NCBI GenBank assembly: GCA_038153405.1
Contig: JAYOYH010000020.1
Coordinates: 15,469-79,468 of the forward strand
DNA from: Gemmatimonadota bacterium
GTDB lineage: Bacteria; Latescibacterota; UBA2968; UBA8231
Reading direction: 5' to 3'
Length of the DNA: 64,000 nucleotides
The position numbers and the translations under genes were made by a program. Positions within the stretch are counted from its first letter, which is position 1. Each line of letters opens with the position of its first letter. Of the stretch, positions 29,099-36,848 are shown piece by piece. Below the pieces are notes generated by a model. The model was given only the letters and a program-made list of their open reading frames with translations. It had not been told where the DNA came from and made no database searches.

Positions 29099-30112
29099 TT
29101 ATGAAATGGTGTGGAGTTGAATAAGCTCTTGTTCGTCGATTCGTTCTAAAGCGTACAGGTAGCGTTGACGCCCCGGACTGCCCACCGGCAAGACTGCGGC
29201 AACATCCAGTGCCGTACGGTCGGCCAGCAGCGCTGCAAGCATTTCTCTACCCTCTACTTCGACTAGGGCCACTCCACCAAATGGCAATATCCGTGCCAGT
29301 TCCGCCAGCACGTGCTCTTCGCTCCCCCTGGCACAGGTGACCATAATGTGCGAGCATTCCTCCTCTAGTATCGGCAGATCGGAGCCATTCCAACAAAACC
29401 AATGCCCCTCAGCAGTGCGAGCAGGTCTCCAGACAGATCCCACGCCAGCATATACAGCAACGCCAAAGGAACGCGTCAATTCGGCCACTTCGCCGCCGTC
29501 CTTGCGCAGCCAAAGAACGCGGTCACCAGACTCGAGGCCGACCATTCTCCCCAAACAATACCCGATGGCGCGATGGCTCCCCCCCTCGGCCGACCGCAGG
29601 CGCAGACCCAAGACAGCACTGCGCCCGCGCACCTGAATCTGCAGCAACAGCCCCTTTTCCGAAGCCCCCGCGCGCAGAGAACAGTCCCGTACGAGGGCCT
29701 TTTGCACAGCGTGAACCACCTGAGCAGGACCAAAGCGGTGGTTTCCCTGAACCGTAGCCTGGACGTGAAAAGCGTCGGCAACTACACCGCGATCACAGGC
29801 TTGCGCCAAGCGCTGGGCCGCGCCCATTTCGACCTTGGCAACGTGGGCGACTATGCGCTCCAAGCCAGGGGTCCCAACCGTTATACCGCGCATATCGGCC
29901 AGCACGGCGTAGACGGCGTGCAGCGAGCGCAATTCGAGCAGGCGCAGGGGGCTGCGCTCGTACTTAAAAAATACCCGCGTGTGCACGCGGCCATTTTCAA
30001 GGCGCTCGATTTGCACGCCCGTCAGTATTTCATGCATCTCGTCGATGGCCACTTCTACATAGCCCGTGGGCACCGCAGCCCAGAAGTGAAATACCTTATT
30101 TTCTCCAGACAT
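29099..30112 (-). CDS. THUMP-domain protein with a degenerate methyltransferase-like C-terminus
   Basis: VPTGYVEVAIDEM, LLELRS THUMP-like N-terminus; no clear SAM motif I. Confidence 0.55.
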   Translation of the reverse strand: MSGENKVFHFWAAVPTGYVEVAIDEMHEILTGVQIERLENGRVHTRVFFKYERSPLRLLELRSLHAVYAVLADMRGITVGTPGLERIVAHVAKVEMGAAQRLAQACDRGVVADAFHVQATVQGNHRFGPAQVVHAVQKALVRDCSLRAGASEKGLLLQIQVRGRSAVLGLRLRSAEGGSHRAIGYCLGRMVGLESGDRVLWLRKDGGEVAELTRSFGVAVYAGVGSVWRPARTAEGHWFCWNGSDLPILEEECSHIMVTCARGSEEHVLAELARILPFGGVALVEVEGREMLAALLADRTALDVAAVLPVGSPGRQRYLYALERIDEQELIQLHTIS

Positions 30113-31386
30113 TAAACCGGGACCTGCATAGGATTGAGGTGGGCGACTCCAGCGCGCCGCGTATTCAAGCAATAGGCAAATCCGTCAGCCACATCGGCCA
30201 TGCTCAGCTGGCGCAGCAATTGGACGTAGTCAAAGGGTTGGCCCCCCAGCTGCCGAGCAGCGCTCATCATTTCGACACAGCCATCCGCACTTTCGAAGCT
30301 GCGCACGACCTGGCCATACACCTTCCGCCGAGCCCGCGTGAAATCTTCGCCCCACTCATCGCTGCGCCAATCGGCCGAAAGGGCTCGGTACACCGCCTCG
30401 ACAAAGGAATCGGGACAGTGCGTTTCGGCCGCAATCATGCAGAAACCATAGGCCTGTTCCAAATGCACCTCGGCGCTAAACGAATCGCCTAGCACCAGTC
30501 CGCTTTCGTAGAGGCGGGCAAAGGCATCGCTAGCCGGCCCCATCGCCATATCGAGAGCTATTTCTAGGGCCAATTCGCGGCCAATAGTGCGCGGTGGGCA
30601 TCTCGGCCCCCCGTCGGGAAACGCCATAAACACCTGCGGATAGCGCACGGCAGCCGGGGTGCTTACAGCCGGTAGCGCCCCATCTGGGGGCTCGGCGCGT
30701 GGGCTGGACCGGCGAGTGCCTGCTCTAAGCTCTTTGCCATGGCGACGCAGCGCCTCTTCAAAGACAACGACCACGCGATGGGGATCGACGTTTCCCGAGA
30801 CAAAGAGCGAGGTGTTTTCGGGTCTGTAATAAGCGGCGTGCCAGCGCTGTAGCAGATCGGCATCTAAGCCGCTGAGCAGCGCCTCGTCACCAGCAATCTC
30901 CCGCACTATCGCCTGCTCTCCATAAGCGCTGTACAAACAGGAGTGATAGCCCACCCAATCGGGATCGTCCTGGTAGAGTTTTATTTCACTGGCAACGATA
31001 TCGCGCTCGCGCGCAATGGCCTCCCCATCCCAATACCCTGCAAAAACGAGTTCGCAGAGCATATCGATATGCTCTTCCCAATGGCTGCTACAGCTCACGG
31101 TGTAGTCCGTGCTTGCCAGTCCAGTGCTGGCATTGACATCGCCGCCCAGAGCGGCAAAGCGGTCGGACATATCGCCGTAGGCCTTTTCAAATAGGCGATG
31201 TTCTATGAAGTGGGCGATACCCATCGCATCGACGCCGTCAAGGCGATGTAACCCTCCCAAACCCACCCGCAGTTGGACGACGATCTGACGCGCATGCCCT
31301 TTGGGAATGATCCACACCTCAGCGCCCTGTGCACAGCGCCCTGCATAAAATTCTTCATCGATTTCGTGGCACGCGCTGCGCCTCAT
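30112..31386 (-). CDS. M16 family zinc peptidase, catalytic subunit (YmfH-like)
   Basis: GIAHFIEH (HxxEH), NAST, ERDIVASEIKLYQDDP. Confidence 0.88.
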   Translation of the reverse strand: MRRSACHEIDEEFYAGRCAQGAEVWIIPKGHARQIVVQLRVGLGGLHRLDGVDAMGIAHFIEHRLFEKAYGDMSDRFAALGGDVNASTGLASTDYTVSCSSHWEEHIDMLCELVFAGYWDGEAIARERDIVASEIKLYQDDPDWVGYHSCLYSAYGEQAIVREIAGDEALLSGLDADLLQRWHAAYYRPENTSLFVSGNVDPHRVVVVFEEALRRHGKELRAGTRRSSPRAEPPDGALPAVSTPAAVRYPQVFMAFPDGGPRCPPRTIGRELALEIALDMAMGPASDAFARLYESGLVLGDSFSAEVHLEQAYGFCMIAAETHCPDSFVEAVYRALSADWRSDEWGEDFTRARRKVYGQVVRSFESADGCVEMMSAARQLGGQPFDYVQLLRQLSMADVADGFAYCLNTRRAGVAHLNPMQVPV

Positions 31387-32696
31387 GTGCTATTTTTCCC
31401 CACCGCGGAACGATCGTGCAGTAAATAAGCCAAGGAAAAGACCACCTGGCGGGCGGCAATGGCCATATCCCGAACGGATAGAGCACCGACGAGGCGCAGC
31501 AGCTCTTCGCCGCCCATTCGCATTCCAGCAAAATGGCCGCGCAGATTCATGCGGATCAGGGCATCGCGATCCTCGCAGAGGGCGGCGATGCGGTGCTGTA
31601 AGAGAGCCCGTCCCTGCTCAAATCCGCTCTCCTCAATCGACTCATTGGCCACGTCCTCTAGTGCGCGGTCGATTTCCTCTACGACGCGACTATAGTCCTG
31701 GCGGTCAATGCCGGCCAGGACGTAGGCCCGACCGGCAAACGCATCAATCTGGGAGTCGATATAATAGCAGAGACCGCGCTCTTCACGCAGTCGACGAAAG
31801 AGCAGCGATTGGGCTTCGCCCCCCCAAATCGTGTTGAAGAGCAGCAGGCGCGCGTAGTCCGCTGCGCTGTCGGGGAGGGCTACGCCATAGCCGCAGACGA
31901 GCCGACTTTGATTGACTTCGCCGCATTCAAAAACGCAGCGGGCGGCAGGCGCCTCCACCGGGCTGACGGAACCAACGACGGGGTTGGGCCGGGCTTGCCG
32001 CCACGTTTGCACCCGCTCAGCGATTGTTGAAATCTGTGCGGGATGGATCCAACCGCTCGCGTAAAAATGGATTTCGCCGTTGCGCATGAGTTCCGTTTGA
32101 AAATCCCACAGATCCGGGGGGTCTACGGCGGCCACATCCTCTACCTGCGCCGGCAGTCCGGCAAAGCAGTCACCGTCCATTTCCCGCGCACAGCGCCACT
32201 GGGCATAAGCCATTTTATCGTTGTAAAGCGAATGAATGTGCGCCGTCAGTGCGCGCTTTTCCTGCTCCAAATAGGAGGCTTTATAGCCGTCGCCTTCACG
32301 TAGCGGATCCATCGCGATCTGGTGCACCATATCCAGAGCGCGCAGCAACAACTCCTCGCGCTCGCCCGCTGCTACAAAACGCGGGTCGAGTAACTCTAGG
32401 GCAACGTGTAGAAACTGGCGGTCGGCCATGGAGCCGATATCGACGGTATAATAGGCCCCATAGAGATTGTCCGCGGCACGGTTCAGGCTCTGCATATCGG
32501 GCAGCAGGCGCGTACCGCGTTCGCACAGTCTTCCAACCAGCGCGAGGTGCGCATTGTCCGGACGTCGTAGGGGATGGCTAATTACGAAATCAAACCGCAG
32601 CGTTTTGTAATTGGGCGTGCGCTGCCAGTGCAGGTATAGACCCCGCCCCAAATACAGATCGACATAGCGTGCAAAGCGTTCGTTGCCCTGTGGCAT
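31383..32696 (-). CDS. M16 family peptidase-like inactive subunit (YmfF-like)
   Basis: YKT, NLYGA, SLLFRRLREERGLCY; no HxxEH. Confidence 0.85.
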   Translation of the reverse strand: MPQGNERFARYVDLYLGRGLYLHWQRTPNYKTLRFDFVISHPLRRPDNAHLALVGRLCERGTRLLPDMQSLNRAADNLYGAYYTVDIGSMADRQFLHVALELLDPRFVAAGEREELLLRALDMVHQIAMDPLREGDGYKASYLEQEKRALTAHIHSLYNDKMAYAQWRCAREMDGDCFAGLPAQVEDVAAVDPPDLWDFQTELMRNGEIHFYASGWIHPAQISTIAERVQTWRQARPNPVVGSVSPVEAPAARCVFECGEVNQSRLVCGYGVALPDSAADYARLLLFNTIWGGEAQSLLFRRLREERGLCYYIDSQIDAFAGRAYVLAGIDRQDYSRVVEEIDRALEDVANESIEESGFEQGRALLQHRIAALCEDRDALIRMNLRGHFAGMRMGGEELLRLVGALSVRDMAIAARQVVFSLAYLLHDRSAVGKNST

Positions 32697-32738: not shown

Positions 32739-33887
32739 TTAAAACTCCTTGCCGAACTGTCCCAGTGGATAAAAAGATACGTGATCAAAATGGTGAAATC
32801 CGGGATGGAGCGCAAAGGTATGGCCCAAACTGACGAGAAAGCGATCGCGCACCAGCGTTTCGAGCACCGCATCGAGAAAGGTCGGCGAAAAGCGAGCCGA
32901 TTTTCCGATGTGGGGCGAAATACTCTGGCGGCGATGAAGTTCGTCCCATCCAAAATAACGCCCCATCTCCGGCTGCATATTCTCGTCGAAGAATAGATAG
33001 AGCACGCCCACCTGATTGGGCGATAAATGGCGCACTAAATCGTCCTGCAAGACCCCGATACCACCAAAGCGCCGACTGGCCCTTTCGTAGTCTTTTAGGC
33101 CGACATACTGGCTGCGTTCCTGCTGAAACTGCGCCGGTTCGACAAAGGCCGGCCGGATCTCCGTATACCCCTCGACAAAAGCTTCAACGCTGCGATCGCG
33201 CGTCTCCCCGGTGTAGACGAAAGCAATTTCGGGAATAGCGCCCTCCACTTTGTTCGGGCGAACGTAGAATTTGAAATTCTCGTAGCGGCCCACCTCTTGG
33301 TGAATATGGCGCAGAAGCACTTCAATCGAATCGCGGTGGGCGCTGTGGAAACGCCCATCTTCGCGCATAAACTGCACGATGCTCTGATAGACAACGCATT
33401 GTCCCAACTCGAGCTGGCTCTGATCGATGGATAGAAACGAACAGGGAGGCCCACCAAAGACCTCATGGTACGCACTGCGCACTTGCGCTCGCTCCTTTTC
33501 GCGCAGCACGGCTTTGGGAAAGCGCACCAACAACCGTTCGACCTTGCCCGAACTAAGCTCCAACTCTCCGGCGGCCTTGCACAGCTCAAACGCAGAGTGC
33601 AGCTGTTCGCGCTGCTTGCCCTCGCGCAGGGAGAGCCGCCCCACCTCCAAGCGGGTGGCCAATCCGATGCCCTGAATATCGGTTTGCATGCGCGCCTTCC
33701 CACCGTGGCTGCCCAGCAGCCAGGTCGACTGCGCGTGCTTGCTCGCCAACTCATCGAAATCGTTGCGGATTTTCCGGGTAAAGCGAAAGTGCGCACTCGG
33801 CTCGTAGTACACAGTAATATCAAAGACTTTCGGCATAGATATAATCTGCCCACTCAGGTGGCGTATCGTATGGCTTATGGCGGTCAT
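32739..33887 (-). CDS. Hypothetical protein (382 aa)
   Basis: Long ORF with AGGAAG RBS, 12 bp after the ABC gene; family not recognised. Confidence 0.7.
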   Translation of the reverse strand: MTAISHTIRHLSGQIISMPKVFDITVYYEPSAHFRFTRKIRNDFDELASKHAQSTWLLGSHGGKARMQTDIQGIGLATRLEVGRLSLREGKQREQLHSAFELCKAAGELELSSGKVERLLVRFPKAVLREKERAQVRSAYHEVFGGPPCSFLSIDQSQLELGQCVVYQSIVQFMREDGRFHSAHRDSIEVLLRHIHQEVGRYENFKFYVRPNKVEGAIPEIAFVYTGETRDRSVEAFVEGYTEIRPAFVEPAQFQQERSQYVGLKDYERASRRFGGIGVLQDDLVRHLSPNQVGVLYLFFDENMQPEMGRYFGWDELHRRQSISPHIGKSARFSPTFLDAVLETLVRDRFLVSLGHTFALHPGFHHFDHVSFYPLGQFGKEF

Positions 33888-33899
33888 ATACGACTTCCT

Positions 33900-35687
33900 T
33901 TAAGCAACTTCTGCTAGTTGGCGAATGCGCTCATCGCGCTGGCGATTGCGCTCTTTGGCCCACTCTGGATCGTAGAGTTCGCGATACAACCCATCGGCTT
34001 CAATAAGTTCTTCGTGGCGTCCGATTTGTTCGACGTGTCCCTCCTTTAGGACGACGATCTTATCGGCATTGCGCACCGTGGATAGGCGATGGGCTATGAT
34101 GAAGGTGGTTCGGTCCTTCATCAGGTGATTGAGGGCCTCTTGCACCTTGGTTTCCGACACGGTATCAAGGGCAGAGGTCGCTTCGTCGAGGATGAGTATG
34201 CGGGGGTTGCGGATGAGCGCACGGGCGATGGCAATGCGCTGGCGCTGTCCCCCGGAAAGGCGGGTGCCGTTGGACCCGAGCAGCGAGCGATAGCCGTCGG
34301 GCAACGAGCAAATAAATTCGTGGGCGTTGGCCTGGCGAGCCGCCGACTCGATCTCGTCCATGGTCGCATCGGGCTTGCCATAGCGAATATTGTCCAGGAT
34401 CGTTCCGCGAAAGAGATGCGTTTCCTGTAGCACCATGCTCATCTGTTCGCGCAGTGCTAAGAGGGCGTATTCCTGTATATCGCGTCCATCAATGCGAATA
34501 GTGCCCGAATCCCGATCGTAAAAGCGCGCGATGAGGTTGGCAATGGTCGTCTTGCCAGACCCGCTAGGACCGACAAAGGCCACAACCTCTCCCGGACGCG
34601 CGATGAAGCTGACCCCCGACAGCACGCTGTCACCGCGGTCGTAGGCGAAGGAGACCTGATCGAACTCGATCTCGCCGCGCAGGTCTTCGCGCAGCCCATC
34701 GGGGTCGTCCTCGACTTCAGGTGCCGTATCAAGTACTTCAAAAACGCGGCGAATACCCACTTTCGCTGGCAAAATCTGCTGCACGACCCCGATGAGCTCT
34801 GAAACCGGCGCATAGAGCATGGCCACATAGCTCATCAACAAGATGTATTCGTCGAGGCGCAACTCCTGTCCGAGGACGGCCGTTCCGCACACCAGCATGA
34901 CGAGCACCTCGCCGACATAGCTAATATTGCCGGTGACCTGTCCCCAAATACTGGCCAAATTACCCGAGTAGAGATCGATGTCGTAATTCTCGCGCATCTG
35001 GCCAATGAGCGAACGGCTCTCGCGGCGCTCCCCCGAGTGCGACTTGACCATCTTTATGGCCCCAACCACTTCGCTGACCTTGCCATAGATCTGCGACATC
35101 TTCTCCGTCGACTTCCAGGCATAGTGGGAAATGCGGGCGCGGAAAAAGAAATAGCCGAGAAAGTGGAAGGGCAATACGACGAGGGCTACGGTTGCCACCA
35201 GGGGGCTCGTATAGAACAGCACGCCAATGAGGAAAATTGCTTTTACGGAAGAGATAACCGTATTGATGACCGTGCCCGTAACCAATGAGGTTACCGAATG
35301 GACGTCGTTCATCATGCGAGAAATAATTTCACCGGAGCTACGCGATTCGTAAAAACCCAGCGAAAGGCGCTGCAAATGGTCGTACATGCGGCGGCGCAGA
35401 TCAAAAACAAGACGTCCGCCGAGTATGCGCATTTGGTATGAATAGGCGAAGGAAATGATGCTGGTGGTCACGCGCAGGGCGACCAGCATGATAACGCATT
35501 CGAGAAAGAGCGCTCGGTCGCCCTCGGGCAACGCCAGACCGACCAGTTTAGATCCCCAAATGGGTGGCAATAGCCCCAACCCGGTCAACACCAAAAGCGT
35601 TATTAGGGAGAGAACTAACTTGGCCCTATAAGGTTGTATTATCTCGTATACTCTAAGCCACAGATTGCGCTTCATTCGCTGCCACAT
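33900..35687 (-). CDS. ABC exporter, fused permease/ATPase (MsbA/MdlB-like)
   Basis: TM domain, GPSGSGKT, LSGGQRQR, ILDEATSALD, IAHRLST. Confidence 0.95.
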   Translation of the reverse strand: MWQRMKRNLWLRVYEIIQPYRAKLVLSLITLLVLTGLGLLPPIWGSKLVGLALPEGDRALFLECVIMLVALRVTTSIISFAYSYQMRILGGRLVFDLRRRMYDHLQRLSLGFYESRSSGEIISRMMNDVHSVTSLVTGTVINTVISSVKAIFLIGVLFYTSPLVATVALVVLPFHFLGYFFFRARISHYAWKSTEKMSQIYGKVSEVVGAIKMVKSHSGERRESRSLIGQMRENYDIDLYSGNLASIWGQVTGNISYVGEVLVMLVCGTAVLGQELRLDEYILLMSYVAMLYAPVSELIGVVQQILPAKVGIRRVFEVLDTAPEVEDDPDGLREDLRGEIEFDQVSFAYDRGDSVLSGVSFIARPGEVVAFVGPSGSGKTTIANLIARFYDRDSGTIRIDGRDIQEYALLALREQMSMVLQETHLFRGTILDNIRYGKPDATMDEIESAARQANAHEFICSLPDGYRSLLGSNGTRLSGGQRQRIAIARALIRNPRILILDEATSALDTVSETKVQEALNHLMKDRTTFIIAHRLSTVRNADKIVVLKEGHVEQIGRHEELIEADGLYRELYDPEWAKERNRQRDERIRQLAEVA

Positions 35688-35692
35688 GAAGT

Positions 35693-35994
35693 TTGTAAGT
35701 CTCTGTGCAACTCAAACTTAGCTAGGTATCATCCATCCGATGTAGACCTTCTCCATCAGGTGGAAGTCAGCTACGCGAGTACGCGACCGGAGCCATACAA
35801 ACCGGTTATTAGTGATGTCAGGGTGGAAATGCAGAAAGGTTGGAGCTGATGTTCTCCCGAAGAACGGTGCGTTCTTCTGCCGCAAAGCGGTTAAATTGTT
35901 GGGAGGTTAAGTACGCGTAGGAAGGTTCCCTATCCAATCAAAAGGGGGAGTTCAATCTATCAAGGGGTAACCGTTTGAGAAATGTACAGACAAG
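35693..35994. ncRNA. Candidate structured ncRNA, possibly 6S-like
   Basis: Many nested complementary helices across the intergenic region (see findings). Confidence 0.45.
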
Positions 35995-36086
35995 CACCCA
36001 AAACGGCAAGCGGAAAGTCGGACTTTATTGGCCCATACGCGGAAGTCGCCTATCTTATTCACCCATTTAATCAATGGGAGTTCGCC

Positions 36087-36848
36087 TTGAGTCAACTAGC
36101 AGGGGTGCGAATCGTACTGGTCGAACCCGCCTCTTCGGGCAATATCGGTTCGGTTGCACGGGTCATGAAGAATACGGGAATCGGCCAGCTCACCTTGGTC
36201 AATCCCCGCTTCGATTGGGATGTAGACGAAACGCGTGCGCTGGCCCACGGCGCAGGTGAAATCCTCGACGGCGCGGTGCGGGCGGACGATCTACAAAGCG
36301 CGGTAGCCGACTGTCATCTCGTCGTTGGCACGACGCATCGCGATGGACGACAACGCGATGCCATTCATCCCCCCGAACGCATCGTCGAAAAGATCGCCCC
36401 CCAACTGCCCAACGGCACGGTCGCTATTGTTTTTGGCCGCGAGAAAGACGGTCTGTGGCAGGAAGAATTGCGCCTCTGCCGGTATTTGGTGCGCTTTCCC
36501 TCTGCCGTTTCCCATCCCTCTTACAACCTTTCGCACGCCGTGCTGCTCTTCGCCTATGCCCTTTTCTGCTCTACGCAAACGGCGCCAAATCCCCCTTCTC
36601 CGTCGCCTGCAGTGCCCCACGCCGAGCGAGAACGGTTATTCGACACCTTGGAAAAAGCCTTGCAGAGCATAGGTTTTGTGCACTATAACCGAGATCCGCA
36701 GCATTTTATGGACGCAGTGCGGCGCTTTTTCAACAAGATTGACCTCGGCGAGCGCGACGTCCGCGTCGTACTAAAGATCTGCCAGCAGATACAGCGCTTT
36801 AGTCGGCGGCAGCGCTCTGTTCGGGAAGATCGATCAGCCAACGGGTAA
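36087..36848 (+). CDS. trmJ: tRNA (cytidine/uridine-2'-O)-methyltransferase (SPOUT)
   Basis: IVLVEP...GNIGSVARVMKN, VFGREKDGL, SYNLSHAV; TTG start after GGGAG. Confidence 0.88.
   Translation: MSQLAGVRIVLVEPASSGNIGSVARVMKNTGIGQLTLVNPRFDWDVDETRALAHGAGEILDGAVRADDLQSAVADCHLVVGTTHRDGRQRDAIHPPERIVEKIAPQLPNGTVAIVFGREKDGLWQEELRLCRYLVRFPSAVSHPSYNLSHAVLLFAYALFCSTQTAPNPPSPSPAVPHAERERLFDTLEKALQSIGFVHYNRDPQHFMDAVRRFFNKIDLGERDVRVVLKICQQIQRFSRRQRSVREDRSANG

Follow-up and report, generated by a model that had tools for sequence, protein, structure and literature searches.

The gap at 35693-35994 of the window (the whole 64,000-nt stretch of DNA analyzed here) separates a minus-strand ABC exporter gene from the plus-strand trmJ gene, and the comparison of homologous loci indicates that its minus strand carries a real, undescribed and lineage-restricted structured leader RNA. 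On balance we favor, with some reserve, its reading as a conserved, partly folded cis-regulatory leader of the ABC exporter operon; a cis-acting leader is preferred because of its position, strand, single copy and linkage to the ABC gene. A search of the literature on Latescibacterota riboswitches, 6S RNA and noncoding RNA motifs found no description of it (subscription journals and supplements lay outside the search). An earlier note on this DNA had taken the whole gap for a long folded rod and had named a leader riboregulator among its possible identities; the latter option agrees with what we observed, a conserved structured RNA element ahead of the ABC gene. The element adds a covariation-supported RNA motif with a clear regulatory target from an uncultured phylum, and if it senses a ligand it would be a predicted orphan riboswitch candidate for an exporter.

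Minus-strand promoter, predicted transcript and neighboring genes

A sigma70-type promoter is present on the minus strand at 35981-36009, with a -35 element TTGCCG (36009-36004), a 17-nt spacer and a -10 element TACATT (35986-35981). It was found by locus comparison and not by single-sequence scanning; a simple promoter and terminator scan of the region found nothing. The comparison included 30 loci: the window, three congener loci and the upstream DNA of 26 ABC-positive family genomes (G029 has no upstream DNA), with trmJ as the divergent neighbor in 26 of the 30. The strict pattern TTGCnn-17-TACATT occurs in 20/30 loci and a promoter weight-matrix score of 17 or higher in 26/30, and the promoter is missing or weak only in truncated or AT-rich loci. 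A metagenome scan yielded 44 further loci, 42 of which were examined, and the promoter was found in 34 distinct leaders from these 42. Removal of near-duplicates left 47 homologous leaders of 159-418 nt.

From the promoter spacing, transcription is predicted to start at about 35974-35976, giving a 5' leader RNA of 300 nt (35676-35975, minus strand) that extends from the promoter to the conserved ATG of the ABC gene. Metatranscriptome contigs from four runs in two studies match the region at 99% identity or higher and cover 35657-35955 and 35804-35965; they attest presence in RNA libraries only, with strand, ends and level not shown and DNA carry-over uncontrolled. One of them reaches 19 nt into the ABC coding region, too short for a bridge. 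Positions 35966-36126 are uncovered and the depth is 7 vs. 2-5 nearby, figures from which neither ends nor level can be read. The earlier note had preferred the plus strand. Judged from sequence, transcription is likely from the minus strand, as indicated by the conserved promoter and by the G-U pairs of the covarying helices described below. The TATCAT -10 box at 35727 that had been cited for the plus strand is present, but its conservation was not found in the congener alignment.

The first gene of the operon (33900-35675, minus strand) encodes an MsbA-like ABC exporter with fused permease and ATPase (PF00664 and PF00005, both above the Pfam cut-off; no NCBIfam equivalog above cut-off). Its start was set at 35675 by homology, the homologues beginning with MKRN or MRQN. 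The second gene (32739-33887, minus strand) encodes a lineage-restricted protein of 382 aa with no Pfam, NCBIfam or PDB match and with Atlas matches all below 0.9; 105 of its 106 homologues likewise have no Pfam match. This gene is apparently limited to the window's lineage and lost along with the ABC gene. The YfmF-like and YfmH-like genes (30112-32696, minus strand; NF047422 at 241.6 bits with a cut-off of 285, NF047421 at 229.2 bits with a cut-off of 250) probably make up the remaining operon, and their spacing suggests that they are probably co-transcribed with the ABC gene. In NCBIfam this pair is associated with EF-P modification, and here it is found outside Firmicutes. A 357-aa ORF without Pfam match lies at 29099-30172 (minus strand).

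On the other side, the trmJ-family RNA methyltransferase gene (36087-36848, plus strand; TIGR00050 above cut-off) has a TTG start at 36087 placed from the extent of the alignment. Homology begins near TTG 36087, and the start listed for the trmJ ORF, at 35982 and overlapping the -10 box of the minus strand, is probably spurious. By its sequence trmJ likely has its own promoter, TTGGCC-17-TATCTT (36028-36056, plus strand), weakly supported by a simple pattern found in the window and 6 of 29 other loci. Since this promoter lies downstream of the element, the element would not be part of the trmJ transcript.

The long rod, the conserved core and the G-poor stretch

The complementary pairs reported in the earlier note all exist in 35693-35994, exactly or within 1 nt of the positions given there, including the inner pair GAAGAACG/CGTTCTTC (35859-66/35870-77). 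Their simultaneous formation as nested helices of one fold, however, was not borne out by the ensemble of the region. Whichever strand is folded, the GACCTTC/GAAGGTT helix has a pair probability of 0.00 and the CTACGCG/CGCGTAG helix one of 0.14-0.15; for the two outer helices the values are 0.78-0.99. One arm of the outermost helix (35983-35990) shares positions with the -10 box of the conserved promoter on the minus strand, and the CTC of the CTCAAAC helix sits upstream of the predicted minus-strand start, so neither outer helix would be in the predicted RNA. That so many helices are unlikely by chance found little support: the 302-nt region just marginally beats dinucleotide shuffles (plus strand z -1.70, 5/100 shuffles equally good; minus strand z -1.38, 9/100). 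BLAST against 61 related genomes found the region in three congeners, with the alignment limited to 35820-35905; the rod as a whole is not conserved. We concluded that the long rod is incidental. Scanning the window region together with 28 homologous loci against Rfam returned nothing beyond chance matches at the element. Among homologues the minus-strand core hairpins covary.

The conserved core (35854-35905, minus strand) consists of a closing helix CTCCC/GGGAG around the hairpins H3 (35890-35880) and H4 (35877-35859), and ends in GGAG. Pair probabilities in the window are 0.98 for H4, 0.96 for H3 and 0.79 for the closing helix. In 11 sequences of the window's genus group H4 is 100% paired with two compensatory pairs, H3 is 76% paired in an imperfect alignment register, and whole-structure covariation exceeded all 500 shuffles; five H4 stem pairs are invariant in sequence in 11/11 group-A sequences. 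A sister group of nine sequences shows five helices with compensatory change in seven pairs, and these helices are 86% paired vs. 39-52% for slid controls. All these covariation counts come from related sequences and should not be read as probabilities. Where only one side of a pair has changed, in H4 and in the sister-group helices, a G-U pair results on the minus strand, and this settles the strand. A further hairpin, H2 (35918-35932, minus strand), is short here and has a C-rich loop in homologues; in the window it forms when the core alone is folded and is absent from the full-transcript fold, and in the sister group two of its six pairs show compensatory change.

Most leaders share a common order of 5' hairpins, H2 with its C-rich loop, a junction with H4, a near-invariant GGAG, a G-poor stretch and a variable 3' domain. 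The GGAG follows a hairpin in most of the 47 leaders, and the 5' domain keeps a length of about 120 nt despite sequence divergence. Invariant columns across groups are few, 1-nt indels occur within the core, and six g13-type leaders (159-176 nt) have no core. The 95-nt core folds with a z of -2.59 and the predicted transcript (35975-35676) with a z of only -0.60; a whole-leader z of -2 or lower was obtained in 7 of the 20 full-length leaders computed. Long-range pairing of the first 16 nt, as expected of a 5'-3' closing stem, was not above shuffled controls in the 47 leaders, and the pairing partners are scattered. Occlusion of the ribosome-binding site is not distinctive (median unpaired 0.42).

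The stretch at 35808-35845 (minus strand) is G-poor, C/U-rich and mostly unpaired (mean unpaired probability 0.73), which makes it a candidate site for Rho loading (rut) or for a nuclease. The G-poorest 40-mer starts at +115-140, an interval picked after data inspection, in 26 of the 40 leaders that have at least 250 nt, compared with a mean of 3.3 and a maximum of 9 in 50 shuffles. Positions +128-165 are less paired than the remainder in 34 of these 40. The stretch is about 40 nt long, and composition alone is no proof of a rut site.

Linkage to the ABC gene and the RNA of sister families

The ABC gene is present in at least 31 of 76 family genomes, the window genome included (17 candidates were scored per genome, and misses are possible), and trmJ in 123 of 132 class genomes; trmJ flanks were inspected in 60 further genomes. 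Model R2 found the RNA in 16/132 class genomes, as one copy per genome and each time upstream of the ABC gene; it overlooks most of the divergent groups, and absence is well tested only in g14. In that group 5 of 31 genomes are RNA-positive, the same five that are ABC-positive, and the window genome itself has a single copy of the element. In each of the 16 g14 genomes without ABC gene that were examined, and in ABC-negative genomes of g18, g15 and g12, trmJ directly adjoins the yfmF-like gene and hardly any leader, or none, is left between them; the ABC gene, the 382-aa gene and the RNA have disappeared together. Three g16 genomes (L065-L067) have lost the ABC gene and kept the promoter with a remnant of about 100 nt, carrying a CTCC/GGGAG hairpin and a C-rich stretch, before the yfmF-like gene. 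Two genomes, G023 and G010, have the ABC gene away from trmJ, and there the promoter and leader accompany the ABC gene. The losses represent few events among kin (in g14 probably one), and any element situated between trmJ and the ABC gene would be expected to go with the latter. In another genome (L058 of G017, 427-1183) a group II intron (RF00029, 68.5 bits) lies between trmJ and the yfmF-like gene, and leader and ABC gene are missing.

In four genomes of sister families (G101, G102, G103, G120) trmJ faces another ABC exporter. Of five genomes tested, four have the sister ABC protein as the best match of the window's ABC protein, at 26-27% identity. In the opposite direction the window's ABC gene comes seventh in its genome, so that orthology is insecure. 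Upstream of the sister ABC gene, also in G038, G040 and G042, a promoter is followed by an RNA of 243-252 nt, an arrangement that occurs in three sister families. This RNA begins with hairpins and ends in an intrinsic terminator; it includes a pyrimidine-rich strand and a long helix with a branched domain on top. The helix has 13 pairs, with an internal loop adjoining the pyrimidine-rich strand. A terminator-like hairpin with U-tract ends 6/6 sister leaders tested vs. 1/44 in the window's family. The distance from the terminator to the ABC ATG is 6-80 nt, and about 300 nt in G042, where the extra nucleotides between leader terminator and ABC start include a second terminator-like hairpin (L108). 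In the single-contig genome G056 (L215) a sister-type RNA with its terminator is intact before an ABC stub of about 22 codons, away from trmJ.

The four-sequence sister alignment did not show covariation above shuffles (88/500). Models R2 and R3 (the latter for the sister families) did not cross-detect, and R3 was built with its 3' helix side 8-9 columns off register, so its misses are weak evidence. Matches of R3 in g22 and G138 fall inside long ORFs and one in G059 is unconvincing; all were dropped. Homology of the window-family core to the sister RNA is suggested by position, by the one-way best ABC match (27% identity) and by short motifs.

Proposed mechanism, alternatives and known systems

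The sister terminator stands directly ahead of the ABC start codon, and we infer from this that the leader would control read-through. A Rho step is proposed because the terminator is absent in the window's family, rho is present (above cut-off), and a C-rich, G-poor unpaired stretch follows the conserved domain at a fixed distance. RNA polymerase would start near 35975 on the minus strand, and the H2/H3/H4-GGAG domain would form from the first 120 nt or so. Behind it, the unpaired C/U-rich stretch may serve as Rho-loading site, replacing the ancestral intrinsic terminator. A ligand or protein on the 5' domain could expose or mask this site. The leader likely sets how much transcription reaches the exporter gene, probably through conditional premature termination; that Rho carries out this step, acting at the G-poor stretch under control of the 5' domain, is a tentative proposal that we consider possible. 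According to PMC12360218, Rho binds single-stranded YC-containing RNA and gates many leaders; regulation by Rho within 5' leaders is established, and examples include rut sites gated by a riboswitch or by a protein. The G-poor stretch fits an RNase site or an RNA polymerase-binding bubble equally well as a rut site. In eight sister-type leaders the best terminator-free fold costs 3-18 kcal/mol (the L102 arm was wrongly delimited), and the leaders show no antiterminator in common. Unpaired positions that never vary, a feature of ligand-binding aptamers, are few. For a metabolite riboswitch, no known aptamer family was found in Rfam and few columns are invariant across groups; a likeness to glycine, cobalamin, lysine and T-box elements was also considered and dropped, their other motifs being absent and Rfam giving no matches.

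As an alternative to a cis-acting leader, the locus might produce a stand-alone RNA, enlarged and branched, that binds RNA polymerase as an open-promoter mimic in the manner of 6S or Ms1, the ABC operon being read through from its promoter. RF00013 matched 0/76 family genomes and gave no convincing match in 26 further genomes of the class, whereas 6S does occur in other classes of the phylum; the same model detected 6S in only 4-5 of 14 known genomes used as control and misses divergent 6S. The sister RNAs would suit such a role with their own promoter and terminator, constant length and internal loop next to the pyrimidine-rich strand. By eye, their 3' strand resembles the RF00013 consensus and GGGAG..CC/GGCACC in the window-family core resembles GGGagcc/ggcaCCC of RF00013. 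Ms1 is described in PMC4191392 as one long hairpin that contains a bubble and has a short hairpin at either end, and the sister-family RNA resembles it in outline. However, neither the window nor any of 28 homologous loci matched RF00013, even when 256-260 nt were searched, and the 47 leaders have no conserved 5'-3' closing stem; both results also speak against the expanded 6S RNA suggested earlier. The length of 159-418 nt (300 nt predicted here) compares with about 160-200 nt for 6S (PMC8414754). The RNA disappears along with the ABC gene and follows it to other places, and the sister alignment lacks covariation above shuffles. Some sister folds have a bubble with a short outer helix of 4-6 bp, which is absent from the window-family consensus. 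We regard the stand-alone RNA as unlikely. Much the same holds for a combined scheme in which the locus replaces 6S in the class: an enlarged, branched RNA polymerase-binding RNA, clearest in the 243-252-nt sister form, would double as ABC leader and would have been remodeled here into an orphan riboswitch-like element with Rho- for intrinsic termination, a scheme of low probability. RNA polymerase binding, if real, would fill the 6S gap of the whole class. Model R1, for which two of the phylum's canonical 6S RNAs were used, gave no match in the window's class but also failed on E. coli 6S (5.5 bits), so that its negative result carries little weight; 6S-Flavo was not found either. Near-canonical 6S RNAs of other classes of the phylum (L132 1501-1680, plus strand; L133 1501-1676, minus strand; L189-L193) were observed, with scores of 43.2 and 33.5 bits that lie below the Rfam cut-off.

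A processing or stability leader is also improbable in our estimate. Here the 5' hairpins would protect the message and the unpaired A/U/C-rich stretch would be a nuclease site, and cleavage may free a small RNA of about 125 nt whose C-rich loops pair with the ribosome-binding sites of other mRNAs. The fixed length of the 5' domain despite sequence divergence, the C-rich loops in H2 and H4 homologues and the fact that the window's family has neither an intrinsic terminator nor a conserved uORF are consistent with it, but the sister terminator directly before the ABC start calls for termination control, and the loops differ in length and letters. We find it quite improbable that the core acts as DNA, its inverted repeat GAAGAAC..GTTCTTC being an operator or roadblock about 100 bp downstream of the promoter and the other folds being incidental to a long UTR. 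The invariance of five H4 stem pairs and the modest whole-leader z values point in this direction; yet the spacer between the arms varies in length, the H4 stem shows compensatory and G-U changes, further helices covary, and the inverted-repeat motif is single-copy in the genome.

Attenuation by ribosomes that translate a leader peptide, known for ABC exporter operons from B. subtilis bmrB-bmrCD, is very improbable here: the window has no uORF with a ribosome-binding site or leaderless start, none is common to the 47 leaders, leader open frames of at least 15 aa are unrelated between genomes, and 1-nt indels occur inside the core. Sister families resemble bmrB-bmrCD in having a terminator-bearing leader ahead of an ABC exporter; unlike bmrB-bmrCD, the element has no conserved leader ORF. 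The yfmF- and yfmH-like genes suggested a proline-rich uORF sensing EF-P, but a search for one gave none. The absence of both tmRNA and RNase P RNA from the searches of the 93%-complete window genome made them candidates too; neither matches at the locus, and G006 carries the element yet has both elsewhere. Both are present in the congeners, and their absence from the window genome (G000) probably reflects assembly gaps. SRP RNA does not match at the locus and lies on another contig of the window genome.

Turning back to the conserved cis-regulatory leader, the element shares with 6S (RF00013) a sigma70 promoter, intergenic position, single copy and the likeness to the GGGAG..CC/GGCACC motif, and differs from it in being branched, without Rfam match, and linked to one operon and lost with it. 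The sister RNA recalls the outline of Ms1 of Actinobacteria (PMC4191392) through its hairpins at the ends, its unpaired pyrimidine-rich strand, its long helix and its terminator; the window-family version differs from Ms1 in having no long helix, terminator or Rfam match, and the element is not kept independently of the neighboring gene. A parallel is offered by the Rho-dependent E. coli ribB, lysC and pgaA and Salmonella mgtA and corA leaders listed in PMC12360218, with which the element shares a folded 5' domain followed by a C-rich, G-poor stretch. The element lies within the predicted 5' leader of a linked gene (start inferred), its stretch is C-rich, G-poor and single-stranded, and like those leaders it has no intrinsic terminator in a genome with rho. 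Unlike them, it has no known aptamer, uORF or Rfam match, and the sister families of the window's family use an intrinsic terminator at the same place. This provides a natural comparison, in which the sister families end the leader by an intrinsic terminator and the window's family has a rut-like stretch.
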